Sequence record: OR455461.1
Source of the DNA: Staphylococcus phage AH12
Length of the DNA: 64,000 nucleotides
Direction: 5' to 3' (one strand)
The translations under genes were made by a program, and so were the position numbers. Below the pieces are notes generated by a model, which had not been told where the DNA came from, made no database searches, and worked only from the letters and a program-made list of their open reading frames with translations. This document shows, one piece after another, positions 9,315 through 61,397 of this stretch (positions are counted from its first letter, which is position 1; each line of letters starts with the position of its first letter).

Positions 9315-9800
9315 TTATTTAAAATGATTTCTAACTTTAAAATCTTTAACTTCTTTACAATCTTCTGAGATAATTTCAAATATATCTTCATTATCAAAAT
9401 TGAATTTTTCTAATGGAATATTATAATATTTCATATTTATATCTATCGTATCACATATTCTTTTATAAAATAAATAATAAAGATCAACTGAAGAGTCTGA
9501 TATGACAAGATTTTGATTTGTTAAATTTATATTTTTAGGTATAAAAGGGGCACTATTAAAGTCCCAATTAATATGTGTAGCTAAATTATGATTAGTAAAA
9601 TCGTAAATTAAGAAAAAATCTAGTTTTATATTACCTTCTTCTTCATCATATAATTCAATCTTTTTACCATCAGATTTATAAAAAGAAAAATTTTCTTTTT
9701 TAAATTCATTATTGAATACATAATAGAAAGCATCGTCTTTTCTATGAATATCATTAACTTCATATATTTCATTATTTACTTTATCTTTGTAATATATCAT
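9315..9800 (-). CDS. hypothetical protein; tandem duplicate of 9818..10297, short version of family tag (..VKDFKVRNHFK)
   Basis: 161-aa ORF. Its first ~30 aa and the underlying DNA are nearly identical to the neighbour. Confidence 0.55.
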   Translation of the reverse strand: MIYYKDKVNNEIYEVNDIHRKDDAFYYVFNNEFKKENFSFYKSDGKKIELYDEEEGNIKLDFFLIYDFTNHNLATHINWDFNSAPFIPKNINLTNQNLVISDSSVDLYYLFYKRICDTIDINMKYYNIPLEKFNFDNEDIFEIISEDCKEVKDFKVRNHFK

Positions 9801-9817: not shown

Positions 9818-10297
9818 TTATTTAAATGTATTTCTAACTTTAAAATCTTTTACTTCTTGACTATTTTCATCCAATATTTCAAATATATCTGTATTACTAA
9901 ATTTAAAATCTTTTAATTTGACATAGTACTTTGATAATTTTTGATCTATCTCACATATATTTTTATATATTAAATAATAGAGATCCTCAGCAGAATCACT
10001 TGAAATAAAATTTTGACTCATTAAATTAAGTTGATGGCCCATTAAAGGTACATCTTTATTCCATGAAGGAATTAATGTCGTTTCATAATTAATAAAATTA
10101 TAACGAATATCAAATCTATATTTTAAAAATCCATACTCTTCATCTATAAATTCTACTATTTTGCTACTAGAAAAATACATATCCTCAAATGTTGGTAAAA
10201 ATTCGTTTCCAAATACATAATAGAATGCATCATCACTTCTATGAATATCATTAACTTCATATATTTCGTTATTTACTTTATCTTTGTAATATATCAT
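9818..10297 (-). CDS. hypothetical protein; tandem duplicate of 9315..9800 (..VKDFKVRNTFK)
   Basis: 159-aa ORF. Confidence 0.55.
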   Translation of the reverse strand: MIYYKDKVNNEIYEVNDIHRSDDAFYYVFGNEFLPTFEDMYFSSSKIVEFIDEEYGFLKYRFDIRYNFINYETTLIPSWNKDVPLMGHQLNLMSQNFISSDSAEDLYYLIYKNICEIDQKLSKYYVKLKDFKFSNTDIFEILDENSQEVKDFKVRNTFK

Positions 10298-11079: not shown

Positions 11080-13246
11080 TTATTCTTTAGTTAAAGAATA
11101 TAAAGCTTGTACCATATATTTATGATAATTAGACTATATCTTATGATATTTAAATCATTTCCATATTTAGTCGTTGAACAACTTTTATTAAGTTGATGCT
11201 GATTAGTTTTGTTTTTCCAGCAATTAATGAAATTTATTGAGAGCATACAAACTTACTCTCATTACCAACTCCACGTATACTATTTCCTGTGTAGTTTAAG
11301 TAATTAGTTTTCTTATTAATAAGTTTATCAGCTTCTTTATTTGCCTCTACAGACCATAAAGAGCGTATTGAAATCATATCCATTTTATATACATGTATTT
11401 ACATATAATTAGACTATATCTTCTTTAGTAATATATTTAGTCGTTGAACAACTTTTATTAAGTTGATGCTGATTATCTTATAGATTTTCCAGCAATTAAT
11501 ATTATTTAATGATGGTAATATGAAATTTTGCCATCAAAGTCAGCCGTAGTATTAACTTCATATAAATTTTTTATGAAGACTAGACTATATCAAACACTTT
11601 TAATTAAGTGTAATTATATTTAGTCGTTGAACAACTTTTATTAAGTTGATGCTGGTTAGATTTGACATTCCAGCAATTAATAATTTTTTGACATTATATC
11701 GCTATAATGAAAGGTCATTAAAATAGCCAAGTGCTTGAGCATATGAATTGTGTATGATTGCAGTATCTAAGAAAATATCTTCATCAATAGGATATTCTCT
11801 TACTACTTTAGGGTAATCTTTTAATACTATATCATCTAAAACTATTTCTGGAATAGTATCAACAGTAGTTAATATTTTAATTTTAGCAGGGGCTACGTTC
11901 AAGAAATTTTCGCATTTATTATATTTATATAATACTTATATAAATTAGACTATATTATATACTATTTAATAGTACCATTGCATTTAGTCGTTGAACAATT
12001 ATATTTAATTGATGCTGATTAACTTTATTAATAGTATTTCAGCAATTAACAGTGTTTATCGACTTAAATCACTTTAAGAAGCGACCATTTTATTAATCGG
12101 ATATCTTGAATACATAACATGCTTATCTTCTACTATTTCAGTTGCAGCGATATAAAGTAAATCAATTACAGTAAAATCTCTACCTAAAGTATTTTCAAAT
12201 AATTTAACTTTATGACGTTTACCTTCTCTATCATTTACATATATAGGACTAAATCTTTCATTAGGATCTTTAATAAAAAATTCTAGCATATTCTTAATTT
12301 CTTTATCATCAAATTGTTCATAAACTTCCTCTAATGAAAGCTCTTTATCTCCTTCACCTGTAGCTGTTTGGAAAGCATCTTTATGAAGTTCAATAAAATC
12401 AATTATATACTTATTAAAGAATGGTAAGAATAATGTAACTAATTGAGTTAATGGTACACCTAACTCACCAAACTCTATCTGCATTTCATCCCATTTATTC
12501 GAATTAATTTTAGGTGAAGAAATAACTGCACGAGTACTATTATCTACTGTTTTACCCAATATACGTTTTTGCATAAAACCAGTTTTACCTGATAATTCTC
12601 CTGAAGTAAATTTCTGATATATTTCAAATAATGTATTTTGTATATTATATTTAGTACTGTTAGCTATAAATCCGAATGAATTAAAACTAATAGCATCTAC
12701 AGAACGTATAATAGAAGAATACATATTATTAACTTCTTCAGTATCTTGAATTTCTCCTGAAGTTTCATTAGGATTAAAGTCTCTATAAAATGCAGGTATT
12801 ACTAACCATTTATCTACAAATATTTTTTGTTTATCCGTATTCTTAATCATATCAATTTTTTCAGATCTAATACGAGAATCATTCTTTCTAAATTTTAAAT
12901 CATCAAATACTTCATATAAGAAATTCAGTCCAGTGTCTCCATCTTCTGAAGGAACTAATTGACCTTTTTCTACTTTAAAATACTCTGAACCCTGAATACA
13001 TAGTTCAATATTTTTATCTAAATCTTTTAATGCTTTATAAGCTACCGGATTAAGGTATTTATCCTTTAAATTAATCCAACCTAAATTATTTTTTCTTTCA
13101 GGAGTACCTATCAAACCAAATATGTCATATGAAAATAAACCATCATCTTTTGGTAGTATACCCGAATCAAAAAATACAGGGTTGGTTACTTCTTTAGCAT
13201 TAGTGTCAGTTATGACTTGTTCAATATCTATCATATCTACTTTCAT
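11080..13246 (-). CDS. multisubunit RNA polymerase beta-prime-like subunit, N-terminal/catalytic-loop part. Split gene: join(13246..12096, 11912..11717, 11544..11530, 11380..11255, 11112..11080), about 506 aa
   Basis: Exon A contains GKTGFMQKRILGKTVDNSTRAVI, matching the beta-prime [23 protein letters not shown] motif. Predicted spliced product reads ..GYFN-ADFDG-DMISIRSLWSVEANKEAD.., matching ..[26 protein letters not shown]... Exon E gives ..VQALYSLTKE, matching VVLGLYYMTR. Exon borders were derived from P1/IGS pairing and reading frame. Confidence 0.7.
11113..11254 (-). ncRNA. ultra-compact group I intron R4 (142 nt) in the RNAP beta-prime-like gene
   Basis: P1 is exon GAGAGU paired to IGS GCUCUC with terminal U.G, 10-nt loop. 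Same core. Ends ..AUAUAUG before GUACAAGCU (V Q A). The first intron nucleotides encode KFVCSQ* when unspliced. Confidence 0.7.
11381..11529 (-). ncRNA. ultra-compact group I intron R3 (149 nt) in the RNAP beta-prime-like gene
   Basis: Same core. Hairpin UGAUGG(C)-15 nt loop-CCAUCA(A) forms P1. Ends ..AUAUAAAAUG immediately before GAUAUGAUU (D M I). The 5' splice site appears to follow C of GGC, facing A in the IGS. Confidence 0.6.
11545..11716 (-). ncRNA. ultra-compact group I intron R2 (172 nt) in the RNAP beta-prime-like gene
   Basis: Same conserved core. 5' exon ends ..UUUUAAU (Asn). GNRA hairpin CAUUAUA-GCGA-UAUAAUG lies in the P1 loop. Tentative IGS is GUCAAAA. The terminal G sits just before GCUGACUUUGAUGGC. 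Exact 3' splice site is tentative. Confidence 0.55.
11913..12095 (-). ncRNA. ultra-compact group I intron R1 (183 nt) in the RNAP beta-prime-like gene
   Basis: P/Q/R/S cores present (UUAAUUGCUG, AAUCAGCAUC, GUUCAACGACUAAAU, GAUAUAGUCUA). P1 is exon CGAU paired to IGS GUCG with U.G at the splice site. GNRA-capped hairpin CUUAAA-GUGA-UUUAAG. Ends ..AAUAAAUG. The reading frame is restored (AU + C = Ile). Confidence 0.7.
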
Positions 13247-16336: not shown

Positions 16337-18626
16337 CTAAAATTTAACCATATTTGATACGAAAGAACTATTTGAAGATTCTAACACTTTAACTCCAATA
16401 GATTCAATAATATCTTTACCTGGTTTAATGTGATCTTCTATCATTGAATCATAATCAATAAATGGTCTAAACTCTTCAGGTATTTTATTTCCTTCTACAG
16501 CAATTACATTCATTCCATTTTTAACTAATCTTTCGTTTCTAAATATTTCTCTAAATTTATCTAATAATTCTTCATCATCAACTTTATCTTTAATATCTCC
16601 AAATGATTTAATATTTAACTTAACCATTAAGATATTTGATGGAAGAGATATTTCTTTATCTGGATACATTAAATTCCATGATAAAGCTGCTCTATAATTC
16701 ATTTGTGTATAAGGATCTTTATATACTTCTGCATTATTAGCTTTACCAGGTTTTAAGAATTCAATATCACCATTCTCTAATGATTTTTTAATCATCTCTT
16801 CAATTTCTTTATATTTACGTATAATACCAATTCTATCAATACCAGTTTTATTTTCTAAAATATCTTTCTGTAGTATTTCAGTGAATAATTCTCTAATACG
16901 TTTATTAGTATTAACTTTTCTAATAGCCATACCTTTAACATCTAAGTCTGGTGGTTGAACTAAATTACCTTCTTGTTGTATTACTGATGATGCATAAGTT
17001 TTCTTTTTATCTGTTGTTAATTGTTTGTCAAGTAAAACGTTTATACTTATATTTAAAATATAAGACTAGACTATATCATATTCTTTATTATTAAGAATTA
17101 TTATATTTAGTCGTTGAACTTCATTATTGAAGATGCTGATTAAGTTTATTTTGTCTCAGCAATTAATAATATTTACTAATACACATTACTGTATACTGGA
17201 GCATTTACATACTCATTTTTCATTGATATAACACCTAAATGTTCATCTTCTAATCCTAAATCTTTACAGAATCTATGATAAGATAATTCTAGTAATTTAG
17301 TTATTTGATAGTTAATAATAGATATATTACCTACACGTTGTTCTAATTTATCTTCTAAACCATTTTCTGCAATAGGGAAATCTTCAGGTTTCTTTTCTTT
17401 CATTTTTTGATATAATGGATCTAAATGTACAAAGTTACTATCTGTCTTTAATATTATATTTTTAAATATAAAATAGACTATATCATATACTCTTTATGAG
17501 CATCATTATATTTAGTCGTTGAACAATCATATTGATTGATGCTGATTAATTTAATAAATACTTTCTCAGCAATTAATAATGTGAATCAACTTAAATTACT
17601 TTAAGCGGCGACCATGTTATCATAATCGATTGTAAGTACACTTCTACGTTTTTTATAATTCATTCTATACATTCTATTGTAATCTTGATAATTATAGATA
17701 ACCCAGTCTTCTAATATATCAAATAATTCATCTAATAATGGAATCATATCTTCAGGTGGTTCATTTGGATCTAAGAAATCTTCTCTACCAGTCATTTTAC
17801 TAATTTTATTATCAAATATATCTGTATGATCTAATAAACCATAAAGATTATTTTTAAAATAAACTCTATTTTTCTCATCTTGAGTTAAATTACTAAAGAA
17901 TTCTTTCAAATCATTTTCTTCATCTTCAGAGAAATTATATTCTACGTTATCCAATAAACCTTTTAATATTTCATTATCAGTAGGAACTGAATTTATCTTA
18001 ATATCGTGTTCTTTATATTCTTCTTGACATATTCTTACGATATAATTATAAATCTCACTAATATTCATAAAGAATATTTTACTTCCTATAAATCTTTCTA
18101 AAGCTATTGCTGAAGTAGTAACAATATCAACACCACTATATGTGATAGCAGGGCCTGAATAAGGATCATAGAAAATACTATTTCCTTGTATCATTGCACC
18201 ATAGTAACTATTAGCCAAAATCTTAATTGTTTTTTGCTCGTTCATATATTTATGATATTTAATATCGTCTACACCTTTACTTATAAACATATTATGTTTA
18301 GCTACTTTACGTGAGTCAATGAAGTCTTTTAACATCTCTGCATTTAAATTTTTTCTTTGTGATTGTGGTTGATAAATCGAACCTGATCCAGTTACTATTA
18401 AATTTGAATTAATAACTGTACGTAATAAAGAATCAACATTCATTTCTTGACCTGATACTTCTGTCATGACAGGTTTAACATTTTCTTTTACAAATTCTCT
18501 ACACTCTTTTAATATTTCTTCTTTATCAAAATCAGGATTATTCTTTTGAACCATCCATACCAATTGTTCTAAGTATCCGGTTAAAGCTCTTTTTCTTTCT
18601 TCTTTATTCTTTAATTCTGTTGTCAT
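16337..18626 (-). CDS. family-B DNA polymerase, C-terminal catalytic (palm/fingers/thumb) part, encoded as its own gene. Split gene: join(18626..17625, 17445..17193, 17037..16337), about 651 aa
   Basis: Exon 1 has motif B KILANSYYGAMIQG (Kx3NSxYG). Predicted splicing joins ..VLTID to TDSNFV.., giving motif C IDTDS (cf YGDTDS). Exon 3 has the KKxY motif DKKKTYASS. AGGAGGT RBS lies before the ATG at 18626. The N-terminal exonuclease part and motif A are not in this gene. Confidence 0.7.
17038..17192 (-). ncRNA. ultra-compact group I intron (155 nt) between polB exons 2 and 3
   Basis: Same core. P1 is exon GUAU plus intron AC, paired to IGS GUGUAU with U.G at the splice site. Hairpin CUUAUAU..AUAUAAG precedes the 3' end ..AUAAACG. 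The frame is restored (U + UU = Phe). Confidence 0.6.
17446..17624 (-). ncRNA. ultra-compact group I intron (179 nt) between polB exons 1 and 2
   Basis: Same P/Q/R/S core. P1 is exon CGAU paired to IGS GUCG with U.G. GNRA hairpin CUUAAA-GUAA-UUUAAG. Closely related to intron R1, same 5' flank AUGGUCGC..CUUAAAGURAUUUAAGUYGAU. Ends ..AUAUUAAAG. The unspliced frame reads YDNMVAA*. Confidence 0.7.
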
Positions 18627-56711: not shown

Positions 56712-57785
56712 TTAATCTATATAGTAGCTGTGTTTGAATCTATCATCTGCTTTATCTTTATATGAATTAATAATATTTTTATTAAGTTCATTAACATCAA
56801 TTACATCGTAATCTTCTTCTTTAGTATTTTCAGCTTTACCAATAAGATATCCGTTACCTTCTTGAGAGAAGAAATCATGATTACCAGTAGAAGTTTTTAA
56901 TCCAGCCATTACAATTGGATTTACATCTTCTTCAGTAGTTTCGAAAATAGGATCTAATTTAAGATTTAATAAAGCTTTATTGGCATTATATTGAGCAAAT
57001 ATTTTAACATCTTCAGCCCAACCAATTTCAGTATAAACTTCTTCAATGAATTCACATTCAACTTGATAAAGTTCAAATAGTAAATTAGTTACCCACATTT
57101 TAATTTCGTTTTGTTCATTTTCTTCTAATTTTTCATAACGTTTACCAAATTTATATCCAATATAAGAACCATGAAGTGACTCATCTCTTAAGATTAATTT
57201 AATGATTTCTAATACACTTTTAAGACTATCTTTTAATCTTAATGGAGTATAAAAACCTGAATAAAATAAGAATGACTCTAAGAATACTGAAGCGGCTTGC
57301 ACTTTAAGGATATCACCTGATTGATAAGCTTCATTAATCAATTTAATTTTCTTTTGAACATGTTCATTTTCTTCTACCCATTTGAAGTTTTCATCTACTT
57401 GTTTTGAATTTAACAAAGTAGTAAAAATAGTACTATACGAGCGATTGTGAATACTTTCCATAAATCTGATGTTGTTTAATACATCTTCTTCCATAGGTGT
57501 AAGAGCATGATGAAGTAAAGCATCTCCTCCTTCACGTGATTGAAGTGTATCAAGAGTAGTTAATTCGGCAAATACTTTATTAACTACATCTTTTGTATTA
57601 TCATCTAATCCATTCCAAGCTTTAATATCATTTGAAACTGGAATACGTGTTGAAGTCCAAAATTGTGATACTAAAGTATCAAATGTCATTAAATCTACAT
57701 AATCGTCTACTTTATTCCAATTCATAGGACTATAATAACTTTTATTATCATTACTACTTGTTAAGAAATTTCCTTTTGTTGTCAT
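56712..57785 (-). CDS. nrdF: ribonucleotide reductase class Ib beta subunit
   Basis: 357 aa. Ferritin-like R2 signatures (..MESIHNRSYSTIF.., ..EEV..E..). Downstream of nrdE in the nrdHIEF arrangement. Confidence 0.8.
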   Translation of the reverse strand: MTTKGNFLTSSNDNKSYYSPMNWNKVDDYVDLMTFDTLVSQFWTSTRIPVSNDIKAWNGLDDNTKDVVNKVFAELTTLDTLQSREGGDALLHHALTPMEEDVLNNIRFMESIHNRSYSTIFTTLLNSKQVDENFKWVEENEHVQKKIKLINEAYQSGDILKVQAASVFLESFLFYSGFYTPLRLKDSLKSVLEIIKLILRDESLHGSYIGYKFGKRYEKLEENEQNEIKMWVTNLLFELYQVECEFIEEVYTEIGWAEDVKIFAQYNANKALLNLKLDPIFETTEEDVNPIVMAGLKTSTGNHDFFSQEGNGYLIGKAENTKEEDYDVIDVNELNKNIINSYKDKADDRFKHSYYID

Positions 57786-57806: not shown

Positions 57807-58052
57807 TTATACTAATATAAAATCAATTATCTTTACTTTTTTATCTCTAACATGTCTAAATTGATCATCATAATTTTCTAAGTAATAATGAACTTTATTA
57901 TCCAAGTCAGAGCTATTAGAGATGACCTCTTTAGCTCCACTTGGTAAATCTATTACTACTATTAATATTTCTGGTTCTTTATTTAAATTTCTATATTTAC
58001 TTTCAAATTTTTCTTTTAATGTCATATAATTTCCTCCAATTAGATAGAACAA
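57807..58052 (-). CDS. small hypothetical protein between nrdE and nrdF
   Basis: 81-aa ORF. Overlaps the nrdE stop by 13 nt. Confidence 0.4.
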   Translation of the reverse strand: MFYLIGGNYMTLKEKFESKYRNLNKEPEILIVVIDLPSGAKEVISNSSDLDNKVHYYLENYDDQFRHVRDKKVKIIDFILV

Positions 58053-60403
58053 GATTCACATTCAACAATACCTTGAGAATTTTCATCATGGTCTGGTGAA
58101 TAAATACGAGTATAATACATAGATTTAATACCTTTACTGTAAGCATAGTTACGTAATCTACTAATATCACGAGTAGTAGTTTCTTTATCTAAAGAATCTT
58201 TTTTCCATTCATACAATTCAGGATCAAGTTCATTCATTAAATAAATATTCATAGAGATACCTTGATCAACATGATATTGAGCTTCTGAATATAAATCAAT
58301 CATATCACGCATATCTAATTGATAAGCATTTTTCTTAAAGTAATCAAAGTTATCTGGTGTAATACCTGGTGCTGGATAGAAAGTAGTACCTGTTTTACCT
58401 TCTACACGTTCTTCAATTAATTCAACAATAGGGTGAATTGAAGGTGATACTTCTCTAACATAACCAATAGAACCATTAGGTGCTACAGCTAATCTATTTT
58501 GATTGTATAAACCATCCATAACGATATTATTTCTTAATTGTTCCCAATCACTATCAGATGGAATAAAGATATCTTCAAATAATTCTTTAACTTTTTCAGT
58601 ACGTGGTTGAATATTTTTACCAATATAACGTTTATCAAAGTAAGAACCATCAGCATATTCAGTTTTTTCAAATAAATAGAATGATTCATCTTTTTCTTTA
58701 GCAATTTTATTTGATTCAACTAACGTCCAATAGTTTAATAGCATGAAATAAATATTAGTGAAATCTTTAGATTCTTCTGATCCATATTGAATATGATTTT
58801 CAGCTAAATAAGTGTGTAATCCCATTGCACCTAAACCAACTGTATGGAATAAATCATTAGCTTTCTTAACTGTAGGTACAGCTTCAATATTAGATTTTTC
58901 TGCTACTGAATTTAAACTTCTTAACATAGTTCCAACTGATTTACCAAAGTCTTCTGATTTCATTAAACCAGGTACGATAGTTGAAGCTAAGTTACATGAA
59001 ACATCTGTTCCTGTTTTAACATATTGTTGATTATCGTCAACTAATGAAGGGTATTGTACTTGCAGAATTTCACTACACAAATTACTCATTTTAATTGTAC
59101 CATGACTAATTGGATTAGCTCTATTAGCTGTATCAATATTAATAATATAAGGATATCCAGATTCTTGTTGTAATTTACTAATAGTAGTTTCTAAATCACG
59201 AGCATACATTTTCTCTTTACCAATACGTTTATCATCTACAAAGATATCATAGTAAGTATTAAAGTCAATACTATCGAAATCTAAATCATAATATTTTTTA
59301 ATATCATATGGACTAAATGTATATAATGATTTATTTTCTTTAACTAATTGGTAATATTTATCTGGAACTGTTAAACCTAATGAAATAGTTTTTAGTCTTA
59401 CTTTCTCATCAGCATTTTCTTTCTTAGTATCTAAGAATTTCACTACATCTTTATGGAAAATATTTAAGTAAAGTGCACCTGCACCATTTCTTTGCATTTA
59501 TATTAACTATATGAAATTCATATAGATTAGACTATATCTTATACTATTAATAAGTATTATTATATTTAGTCGTTGAACAATCATCTTGATTGATGCTGAT
59601 TAAGTTTATAAACTTTTCCAGCAATTAATATTATTTATACTGAGCCATTAAAATTAACCCAGTTGATTTACATATGATAAAGTATCTTCAAATACTTTCA
59701 TAACTGGAACTACTCCTGAAGCAGCACCTTCAACACCTTTAATTGGATCATTATCAGCACGTAGATTACTTAAAGATACTCCTATTCCTCCACCACGTTT
59801 ACTTAATTGTGCCACATTAGAGATATTTCTATAAATAGATGATAAAGAATCCTCCATAGTTAATAAGAAACAACTTACTAACTCACCAGAACGTACTCTA
59901 CCTGCATTAAGAAATGTAGGTGTAGCTGGTTGGAAAGTACCTGTAATAATTTCATTAGCAATATCTCTAGCTAATTCTTCATCACCGTCAGCTAAGTATA
60001 AAGCTACAAATAAAATTCTATCTTCATATAGTTCTAATAAGATTTCCCCTGCATCATCTTTCATTGCATACTGTTCATAGAATTTTTTAGCTCCTAATAA
60101 ACGAGTAAAACGATGTTTATAAGCCATTAATTCTTTCATTAATCCTTTAATAAATTCAAAATTATAGTTATTGATCATATCTCCATCAATATAATCATTA
60201 TTAACTAAGTAATTAATTTTTTCCTTATATGTTTTAAAATATCTTACATTCTTATTAACTTTTTCATCGAAGTATTTACTAACAGAAGCTAACTCAAATT
60301 CTAGATCTAAATTACCGTCTTTTAATTGTGAACCTCTTGAATTCAATTCATTGTATGAATAATCTTTGAACTTTTCTGAGTTTAAGTCTATTTCTTTTGT
60401 CAT
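58040..60403 (-). CDS. nrdE: ribonucleotide reductase class Ib alpha subunit. Split gene: join(60403..59657, 59494..58040), about 733 aa
   Basis: Exon 1 has ..TFQPATPTFLNAGR..GELVSCFLL..SKRGGGIGVSLSNLR... Exon 2 has ..QRNGAGALYLNIFH.. and the C-terminal Cys pair (CESCSI). Predicted splicing gives the seamless ..NQLG-QRNGAGA.. junction. Confidence 0.8.
59495..59656 (-). ncRNA. ultra-compact group I intron (162 nt) in nrdE
   Basis: P1 is exon CUGGGU paired to IGS GCUCAG (C-G, U-A, G-C, G.U, G-C, terminal U.G), 11-nt loop. P/Q/R/S cores AAUUGCUGG, AAUCAGCAUC, GUUCAACGACUAAAU, AAGAUAUAGUCUA. P9-like hairpin CUAUAUG..CAUAUAG. Ends ..AUAUAAAUG. The ATG of the downstream ORF is actually the intron 3' end. 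Confidence 0.8.
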
Positions 60404-60423: not shown

Positions 60424-60846
60424 CTATACTAACTCTAAATCTTTATTTATAATACTAGAGTTACTTAAGTCTTTTAATTTTTTATTTAATTCGATATGTT
60501 CATTTTTAATTCCGAATAATTCTATACCCATTAATAATTCTAAATTAAAATCATTACATAATTTCTTAGGTGTAGTTAAGAATTCATAATTAAGATTTCT
60601 ATTACCTGAACCTACAATGCCAATACATCTACTTAGATTCATTCCATTACTAAAGAACTTTTTAACGTGATTATAAATTGCATGTGGAGTATTATAAGAT
60701 CCACATATAAGTATATAATCTTCATTCATTTCTATTTCTTCACAGTTATTTCTATTAAGTTCAATAGGTTCTCCAACTATTGTTTTGTCTAATTTATCTG
60801 CAAATTTTTTACTATTACCTGTTAGAGTAAAATAAACTAATTTCAT
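60424..60846 (-). CDS. nrdI: flavodoxin-like RNR class Ib activation protein
   Basis: 140 aa. N-terminal KLVYFTLTGNSKKF typical of NrdI. Position between nrdH and nrdE. Confidence 0.7.
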   Translation of the reverse strand: MKLVYFTLTGNSKKFADKLDKTIVGEPIELNRNNCEEIEMNEDYILICGSYNTPHAIYNHVKKFFSNGMNLSRCIGIVGSGNRNLNYEFLTTPKKLCNDFNLELLMGIELFGIKNEHIELNKKLKDLSNSSIINKDLELV

Positions 60847-61163: not shown

Positions 61164-61397
61164 CTATAATGAAGATAATACTTGATTTAATTTAGCTGGA
61201 TCGTTTCCAACTACAACATCAGTACCGAAATCAATTACTGGTAAAGATTGATAGCCTTTAGATAAAAGATCTTCTTTAGCTTTTTCATCCTCATCAATAT
61301 TAATTTCTGTATATTCAATTCCTTGATTACCTAAAACCATTTTACTAAACATGCATTTACTACAATTATTCTTTGTATAAAATTTAATTTCTGGCAT
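61164..61397 (-). CDS. nrdH: glutaredoxin-like protein NrdH
   Basis: 77 aa. CSKC redox motif near the N-terminus. Thioredoxin-fold size. Leads the nrd cluster. Confidence 0.7.
   Translation of the reverse strand: MPEIKFYTKNNCSKCMFSKMVLGNQGIEYTEINIDEDEKAKEDLLSKGYQSLPVIDFGTDVVVGNDPAKLNQVLSSL

Follow-up and report, generated by a model that had tools for sequence, protein, structure and literature searches.

Group I introns in phage ribonucleotide reductase (RNR) genes are a classical observation. Those described in Bacillus cereus-group and SPbeta-type nrdE and nrdF genes lie in frame in conserved parts of the gene, begin with a stop codon and use the final 4-6 bases of the exon for their first helix, P1 (Tourasse & Kolsto 2008, PMC2504315). 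Their subclasses (IA1, IA2, IA3 and IB4) are larger ones, and endonuclease genes are present in many of these introns (PMC2504315). Here we describe an element in the class Ib nrdE gene of Staphylococcus phage AH12 (sequence record OR455461.1), located on the minus strand at 59656..59495 of the 64,000 nucleotides (nt) that were analysed, referred to below as the window. With a probability of roughly 90%, this element is a very compact group I intron without an open reading frame (ORF) in the nrdE gene of an S6/MarsHill-like Staphylococcus jumbo phage. It shares the in-frame initial stop codon with nrdE/nrdF group I introns generally (PMC2504315). Introns of this type are ordinary in phages, but the present one is exceptionally small, and its family escapes standard RNA scans.

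Intron boundaries and the continuity of NrdE

The boundaries of the element are established by alleles that do not contain it. In a megablast search, nrdE matched nine Staphylococcus jumbo phages (S6, PALS_2, DC4, MarsHill, Madawaska, Machias, SA1, LY01 and PB50) at 92-96% identity; the identity of the whole window to PALS_2 is about 80%. In six of these nine relatives (PALS_2, S6, DC4, MarsHill, Madawaska and SA1) the intron is exactly absent, the match consisting of two pieces that cover 93% of the query and together span 2202 nt. The intron-bearing gene measures 2364 nt and the intron-less nrdE of PALS_2 2202 nt, a difference of 162. Around the cut point, PALS_2 reads ...CAATTGGGT/CAACGTAATGGT... 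(here and below, a slash within a single sequence marks the junction), with CAACGT following the cut, and excision of 59656..59495, which leaves a 5' exon ending in ...CAACUGGGU at 59657, yields ...CAACTGGGT/CAAAGAAATGGT... in the window. Moving the cut by one base gives GGGG/CAA or GGGTT/AAA, neither of which is the GGGTCAA of PALS_2, and the 162-nt interval is therefore unique. The last exon base is consequently a U and the last intron base a G, the omega-G. An initial annotation, which had been made from the DNA letters and their ORFs, had proposed an intron at exactly this place in nrdE, and it is borne out by the precise absence in six relatives as well as by the Rfam match and the covariation presented in the next section.

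The intron makes one essential gene look like two. The upstream ORF, 59654..60403 (-), encodes 249 amino acids (aa) ending in ...SYVNQLG and stops at the TAA formed by intron nt 1-3, and the downstream ORF, 58040..59497 (-), encodes 485 aa with the N-terminus MQRNGAGALYLNIFH, its ATG being intron nt 160-162. That this apparent start is really the omega-G codon of the intron, as the initial annotation had held, follows from the boundaries given by the intron-less alleles and agrees with the signals for translation initiation. The true nrdE start at 60403 is preceded by the Shine-Dalgarno sequence AAGGAGA, and AGGAG-like sites at the usual distance were found for all genes checked, namely at the true nrdE start, nrdF, nrdI, nrdH and one neighbouring ORF. 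The 25 nt preceding the internal ATG (uaugaauuucauauaguuaauauaa) were searched as well, and no Shine-Dalgarno sequence was found in them.

Fragments of a split reductase can assemble, for which the mobE-split NrdA of Aeromonas phage Aeh1 is a precedent. The 249-aa and 485-aa fragments might likewise be translated separately and form an active NrdE, and both the ATG at the start of the downstream ORF and the two coding sequences (CDSs) annotated in LY01 and PB50 would suit such a gene in pieces. We regard this as extremely improbable, given an internal ATG without a ribosome-binding signal and an intervening sequence which is a covarying group I ribozyme core with exact splice-site features. 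Separate translation would, moreover, break a short and functionally critical loop of the protein mid-way, and the downstream fragment would start with M-QRNG, one residue more than the intron-less alleles have.

The continuity of the spliced protein is established by direct comparison. The predicted product of 733 aa reads ...VNQLGQRNGAGALYLNIFH... at the junction and is identical to the PALS_2 protein across 45 aa around it, in agreement with the seamless product that had been predicted to continue from ..VNQLG. The alignment against NrdE homologues proposed at that time as a check for an insertion or deletion gives gap-free matches over the junction for Salmonella NrdE (1PEM, E = 2.8e-88, NQLG/ARQGAGAVYL), a second NrdE (9L6O, E = 1.2e-87) and Bacillus subtilis NrdE (6CGL, E = 4.3e-79, DQMG/QRQGSGAAYLNIFH). 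The full-length similarity to these structures and the aligned SCFLL, NLCSEI and SCNL motifs identify the protein as a class Ib NrdE. The junction G249/Q250 (NQLG/QRNG) is placed by these alignments in the middle of specificity loop 2, probably equivalent to the position between residues 296 and 297 of the E. coli enzyme, judging from the Gln...Arg spacing and the ungapped offset (query 6 = residue 213). In E. coli, loop 2 comprises residues 292-301 with Gln294 and Arg298, bridges the effector and substrate sites and relays the identity of the effector to the substrate site (PMC4728125). The earlier description of the site as a class I RNR active-site region is therefore loosely right: the junction is in loop 2 and not at the catalytic cysteines, whose motifs (SCFLL, NLCSEI and SCNL) are located in other parts of the exons. 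The nrdH-nrdI-nrdE-nrdF neighbourhood of the gene is also found in the window (Table 1).

The misleading effect on annotation, which had been anticipated as well, can be read from the deposited records: in LY01 and in PB50 the site is annotated with two distinct CDSs, each termed 'alpha subunit', whereas the nrdE CDS of Machias is a three-piece join marked 'predicted based on alignment'. An intron at the exact nrdE site is thus already implicit in GenBank through the Machias join. The paper on Machias predicted introns from protein alignments only, and nrdE and RNA structure are not discussed in its text (bioRxiv 10.1101/2020.12.14.422802).

The ribozyme core and how it might splice

The RNA of the element (numbered so that nt 1 is 59656 and nt 162 is 59495, minus strand) contains the helices listed in Table 1. 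P1 joins the end of the exon to an internal guide sequence through the pairs C-G, U-A, G-C, G.U, G-C and U.G, the last of which is the wobble between U(-1) and G12 at the splice site, and it may be extended by two intron-internal pairs, U1.G11 and A2-U10. This pairing, too, had been proposed in the initial annotation, and it is confirmed by the sequence of the minus strand, by the minimum free energy (MFE) fold and by a compensatory change in PB50 described below. A six-base-pair, G.U-tolerant helix is expected by chance within about 25 nt with a probability of roughly 0.07 (estimated as 0.375^6 x 25), so that P1 alone would be weak evidence. The element as a whole is more than chance, as the following three lines of evidence demonstrate.

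Firstly, an Rfam scan of the 361-nt stretch 59400..59760 matched RF00028 (Intron_gpI) along the entire model, positions 1-253, with 36.9 bits and E = 4.8e-8, in an alignment that includes P1, P3, P4, P5, P6, P8 and P9 but lacks the P2 of the model as well as the greater part of its P6 and P8. Sub-threshold matches to CRISPR-DR14, MIR5291 and ST7-OT4_3 in the same scan (E = 3-10) were dismissed as noise. Secondly, the MFE fold of the intron preceded by the nine exon bases next to it recovers P1, P4/P5, P6, P7, P8 and P9 unprompted, with an energy of -35.9 kcal/mol compared with -22.3 +/- 3.4 for shuffled sequences (z = -3.99), none of the 200 shuffles being as stable. Thirdly, the drawn structure, including the P7 pseudoknot, was scored against slid partners and shuffles on an alignment of the core of ten family members, comprising the seven copies in the window and the three nrdE homologues of LY01, Machias and PB50. 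In this alignment 94.5% of the cells are paired as opposed to 26-50% in the slid controls, 14 pairs show two-sided changes, and 0 of 500 shuffles equalled it.

A covariance model built from the ten members, termed R1, gives the nrdE intron a score of 116.9 bits and was also applied to unrelated phage loci from IMG/VR. Among 40 distinct metagenomic copies aligned by R1, 92.9% of the cells are paired and 22 of the 27 pairs are compensated, in an alignment which is biased towards the structure because it was fitted to R1. The Rfam alignment and the covariation together establish a group I core, P3-P9 with the P3/P7 pseudoknot. Several alternative helices were tried and abandoned: P8 as CUUAU with AUAAG, which covariation shows to fail in introns A1, A2, B1 and B2 of the window; P3 in a register overlapping P8 (UAAUAUU with AAUAAUA), which has weaker support than columns 7-12 with 81-86; and P6 as CAUC with GAUG, which was replaced on the basis of covariation by CAAUC with GAUUG. 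An intein is ruled out, as the insert opens with a stop codon and lacks coding capacity, and so is translational bypassing, given 162 nt with a ribozyme core. The element does not conform to subgroup IA2 (the T4 td or Twort type), since it lacks P2 and P7.1/P7.2 and its P3 3' strand directly abuts P8, and the resemblance to subgroup IA is confined to the R/S core sequence.

Three of the relatives carry an intron at the identical position of nrdE. The same 162-nt intron is present in Machias (97.5% identical) and LY01 (94.4%), and PB50 has an intron of 714 nt there (L004 2251..2964) whose helices differ in a compensatory manner. P1 changes from CUGGGU with GCUCAG (window, LY01 and Machias) to UUGGGU with GCUCAA (PB50); P4 from GCUG with CAGC in the window to GCUA with UAGC; P6 from CAAUC with GAUUG to CAACUU with AAGUUG, a variant present in other copies; and P9 from CUAUAUG with CAUAUAG to CUGUAUU with AAUACAG. 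The loop of P8 in PB50 contains an HNH endonuclease ORF (179 aa, PF01844, 29.7 bits), around which P8 is a perfect 12-base-pair stem, AUUAUUCUUCUC with GAGAAGAAUAAU. We also observed that this ORF extends into the ribozyme core, its stop codon UAG lying within the S element, that is, in the P7 3' strand (GACAUAGUC). The window intron, with its 162 nt and no ORF, lacks a homing endonuclease gene and is therefore probably not mobile on its own, and the same-site allele of PB50 with its HNH gene in P8 shows a route by which the element may have spread. Machias nrdE additionally contains a second intron of about 982 nt with an HNH gene (approximately L003 2124..3105) at codon 208 (SKRGGG/IGV), upstream of the shared site, which neither the window nor any of the other relatives contains.

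If the intron splices, it would presumably do so by the canonical two-step pathway and independently of a protein helper. In the pre-mRNA, the exon end CUGGGU would pair with the guide GCUCAG to form P1, so that the 5' splice site would be marked by the U.G wobble. A free guanosine would be bound in P7 by the core (P3-P9, including the P3/P7 pseudoknot) and would attack after U(-1). The terminal G at 59495 would next take the same guanosine site, and the freed 3'-OH of the exon would attack after this G and join ...GGU to CAA.... The product would be a single NrdE of 733 aa with loop 2 intact (NQLG/QRNG), and ribosomes on unspliced RNA would be stopped by the UAA codon with which the intron begins in frame (nt 1-3).

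Several observations weigh against this reading. Splicing itself is something that we infer from the sequence. On the whole 64-kb window, Rfam returned no match at the gathering threshold and none at E <= 0.1 in E-value mode, and the 36.9 bits of the short scan lie below the curated gathering score of 50 for RF00028. The P3 helix of the window copy contains an A.A mismatch which LY01 and Machias do not have, and a P10 helix could comprise only 2 base pairs (C+1/G11 and A+2/U10). Furthermore, the intron structure contains no P2, P5abc, P7.1/P7.2, P9.1 or GNRA tetraloops. With these elements absent and the loops rich in A and U, it is doubtful how the tertiary structure would be stabilised and whether the RNA could splice unaided. 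With regard to the Rfam negatives, we noted that the RF00028 match of the short scan vanishes in the 64-kb E-value scan despite a scaled E-value of about 1e-5, and speed and bias filters acting on an RNA of 21% GC are the likely cause of the miss.

Alternatively, the core of the nrdE intron might be too reduced to fold alone, and its splicing would then depend on help in trans, for instance from an RNA chaperone of the phage or the host, from a protein resembling a maturase or from the transit of ribosomes. This would be a variant of the same reading rather than its opposite. We consider this variant unlikely and nevertheless give it some weight because all peripheral stabilising elements are missing. 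The apparent loss of P8 or P5 in sister introns of 149 and 142 nt (see below) would be in keeping with it, and up to 34 copies per genome would make a shared helper economical. On the other hand, the core helices are well formed and covary strongly, small bacterial group I introns such as that of Azoarcus self-splice, and the analysis yielded no candidate for a helper factor.

The mismatch in P3, which is specific to the window copy, together with the lack of an ORF and the score below the Rfam threshold, could also be expected of a decayed remnant which no longer splices and which has turned nrdE into a pseudogene. Such decay is very improbable, considering that both exons are intact, about 95% identical to functional-looking relatives and free of frameshifts, that LY01, Machias and PB50 keep the same intron with compensatory rather than random changes, that the remaining nrdH-nrdI-nrdE-nrdF cluster is intact, and that the other six introns of the window interrupt catalytic motifs of RNA polymerase beta' and DNA polymerase, genes which are not dispensable.

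A family of mini-introns in the window and beyond

A self-splicing nrdE intron, the reading preferred here, would not stand alone. The window contains seven instances of the conserved R element, all of them on the minus strand, and R1, run on the window with filters off, gives exactly seven matches of 88-117 bits, the next best scoring 22.9 bits, and hence no further family members in these 64 kb. The boundaries of the other six introns were obtained by comparison with the intron-less PALS_2 and the identities of their genes from Pfam (Table 1); none of the six was found by Rfam on the whole window. These sister introns interrupt catalytic motifs, namely ADFDG of NADFDGD in the RNA polymerase and D/TDS in the DNA polymerase. 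The initial annotation had counted seven introns and called that of nrdE the cleanest; the number agrees with R1, while the ranking is a matter of taste, in view of the A.A mismatch in P3 and of introns A4 and B1, whose P1 helices are as good as that of the nrdE intron.

Some of the sisters are even smaller. In A3, P8 seems to be almost missing, with only CUAAAG between the P3 3' strand and J8/7, and A4 seems to lack P5 (GGAAAAACAAAACUAAUC). If these readings are correct, we know of no functional group I core that is more reduced. A U.G pair at the 5' splice site is near-universal in group I introns. If A2 and A3 end in a terminal G, the last exon base before each of them would, judging from the protein alignment, be a C instead of a U, which would result in a C-G and a C.A pair.

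The family extends well beyond this phage. LY01 (OR836606, 259 kb, L098-L103) contains 34 R1 matches of 77-117 bits, none of which is annotated; clusters of them are seen, for example, at L098 40407..41105, L101 26214..27526 and L102 32906..33618. A blastn search with the nrdE intron found 30 places in Machias, 21 in PB50, 12 in Madawaska and 10 in MarsHill, and no match in S6, DC4 and SA1, and 70 kb of PALS_2 searched with R1 contained no copy. When IMG/VR was scanned for an exact pattern, 89 stretches were returned, mostly on contigs of 200-400 kb (L007-L086), and R1 identified 258 copies in 0.7 Mb of IMG/VR loci, often in tandem about 200 nt apart and separated by micro-exons. In one of these loci (L042 72..1274) six introns cut an RNA polymerase beta' gene into micro-exons (...CEPLNAD/FDGDTVSIR...), and a further example of tandem R1 matches is found at L055 10877..12247.

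These counts tentatively suggest that ultra-compact group I introns form a large lineage which has so far gone unrecognised and to which the nrdE intron belongs as one copy. Its members would lack P2 and peripheral domains, score below the Rfam threshold, prefer catalytic motifs, leave micro-exons of 15-27 nt and have proliferated to 34 copies in LY01 and to hundreds in uncultivated phage contigs of 200-400 kb. If this possible interpretation is true, the members either self-splice, in which case no natural group I ribozymes that do so would be smaller, or depend on a trans-acting helper which they share. For comparison, in crAss-like phages 14 introns per genome were described as a density without precedent (PMC7886860). 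The paper on the related phage DC4 reported that no introns were found by Rfam (PMC10638138), a negative result which may be genuine because DC4 has no blastn match to the nrdE intron. In the window, however, the standard Rfam pipeline demonstrably misses the nrdE intron. The family-specific covariance model recovers every window copy, and correct proteomes of these jumbo phages therefore need such a model.

Two side observations are added here. Intron nt 105-157 (in window 59495..59552) match the Flavobacterium phages FpV4 and Fpv3 with 85% identity by blastn, at about 79.1 kb and inside or beside an 'endodeoxyribonuclease' gene, which may represent the 3' half of a related intron in an unrelated phage group. 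Elsewhere in the window, two adjacent paralogous ORFs, 9315..9800 (-) of 161 aa and 9818..10297 (-) of 159 aa, both start with MIYYKDKVNNEIYEVNDIHR and are taken as a tandem gene duplication because their cross-match is also found in PALS_2.

Table 1. Positions of the nrdE locus, the helices of its intron, the sister introns and the neighbouring nrd genes in the window
Feature	Window position	Strand	Intron nt	Description and basis
nrdE exon 1	59657..60403	-		249 codons; ends ...VNQLG, last base U; ORF list and collinearity with intron-less PALS_2
Group I intron	59495..59656	-	1-162	162 nt, no ORF; starts with in-frame stop UAA, ends ...AAAUG; terminal G 59495
nrdE exon 2	58040..59494	-		484 codons and stop; starts QRNGAGALYLNIFH
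P1 5' strand	59657..59662	-		last six exon bases, CUGGGU; paired with the guide in the MFE fold
P1 3' strand	59640..59645	-	12-17	internal guide sequence GCUCAG; G12 in the U.G wobble at the splice site
J1/3		-	18-23	UAUAAA, six unpaired bases in place of P2
P3 5' strand	59628..59633	-	24-29	UAAUAU; two-sided changes in 5 of 6 pairs (alignment of the ten family members, columns 7-12 with 81-86)
P3 3' strand	59558..59563	-	94-99	AUAAUA
P4-P5 hairpin	59594..59623	-	34-39/58-63 (P4), 42-45/52-55 (P5)	P4 UGCUGG with UCAGCA; P5 AAGU with ACUU
P6 hairpin	59578..59592	-	65-69/75-79	CAAUC with GAUUG; covariation and MFE fold
P7 5' strand	59567..59571	-	86-90	GACUA; within conserved R element UUCAACGACUAAAU
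P7 3' strand	59530..59534	-	123-127	UAGUC; within conserved S element AAGAUAUAGUC; forms the group I pseudoknot with P3
P8 hairpin	59541..59557	-	100-105/111-116	AUACUU with UAGUAU; two-sided changes in 4 of 6 pairs; site of the PB50 HNH ORF
P9 hairpin	59507..59525	-	132-138/144-150	CUAUAUG with CAUAUAG; Rfam alignment and MFE fold
3' tail	59495..59506	-	151-162	UUAAUAUAAAUG; includes the terminal G; last three bases are the spurious ATG
Intron A1	12095..11913	-		183 nt; RNA polymerase beta'-like gene
Intron A2	~11726..11545	-		~181 nt; RNA polymerase beta'-like gene
Micro-exon	11530..11544	-		GCTGACTTTGATGGC; 15 nt, ADFDG of NADFDGD; between A2 and A3
Intron A3	~11529..11381	-		149 nt; RNA polymerase beta'-like gene
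Intron A4	11254..11113	-		142 nt; RNA polymerase beta'-like gene
Intron B1	17624..17446	-		179 nt; family B DNA polymerase gene
Intron B2	17210..17038	-		173 nt; family B DNA polymerase gene
NrdH-like ORF	61164..61397			corresponding annotated genes in PALS_2, Machias and PB50
NrdI/flavodoxin ORF	60424..60846			corresponding annotated genes in PALS_2, Machias and PB50
Beta subunit (nrdF) ORF	56712..57785			corresponding annotated genes in PALS_2, Machias and PB50

Comparison with the Azoarcus and Twort introns

The intron in the pre-tRNA-Ile of Azoarcus, which has 205 nt, belongs to subgroup IC3 and possesses P2 as well as GNRA tetraloop-receptor contacts, is the one with which small self-splicing group I introns are usually compared. 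Like the nrdE intron of the window, it is compact and consists of core helices only. At 162 nt, with sisters down to 142 nt, and without P2 and GNRA loops, the window intron is smaller than the approximately 200 nt of Azoarcus (197 nt for the cryo-EM construct tabulated in PMC8864457). If the introns of 140-180 nt splice unaided, the natural group I catalytic core that they define would be smaller than the commonly used Azoarcus ribozyme; if they need aid, they point to a splicing helper that is not yet known.

With respect to the gene and the site of insertion, the first nrdE intron of the Staphylococcus phage Twort is closer. A 2002 study by Landthaler and colleagues reportedly gave its length as 429 nt and is said to have shown that it splices. 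By sequence check, we located it at 57194..57622 of the Twort genome (AY954970), with a length of 429 nt. It resembles the window intron in that it lies in a class Ib nrdE at the loop-2 motif, is preceded by a U, ends with a terminal G and contains no ORF, and its core elements, CAACGACUA ... GAUAUAGUCU, are of the same type as the R/S core of the window intron. It differs in being 2.6 times longer, with extra helices, and in its host, an unrelated phage of the Herelleviridae with a genome of 131 kb; R1, applied to 90 kb of Twort, did not detect it at E <= 0.001. It is, furthermore, inserted one codon upstream, at NQG/GKREG as compared with NQLG/QRNG in the window. Different introns have thus invaded loop 2 of RNR at sites separated by one codon, one in Twort and the other in the lineage represented in the window, and the mini-intron family has further targets in RNA polymerase (NADFDGD motif) and DNA polymerase (DTDS motif). 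Both the double invasion of loop 2 and the targeting of the polymerase motifs fit the rule that homing elements reside in the most conserved codons.

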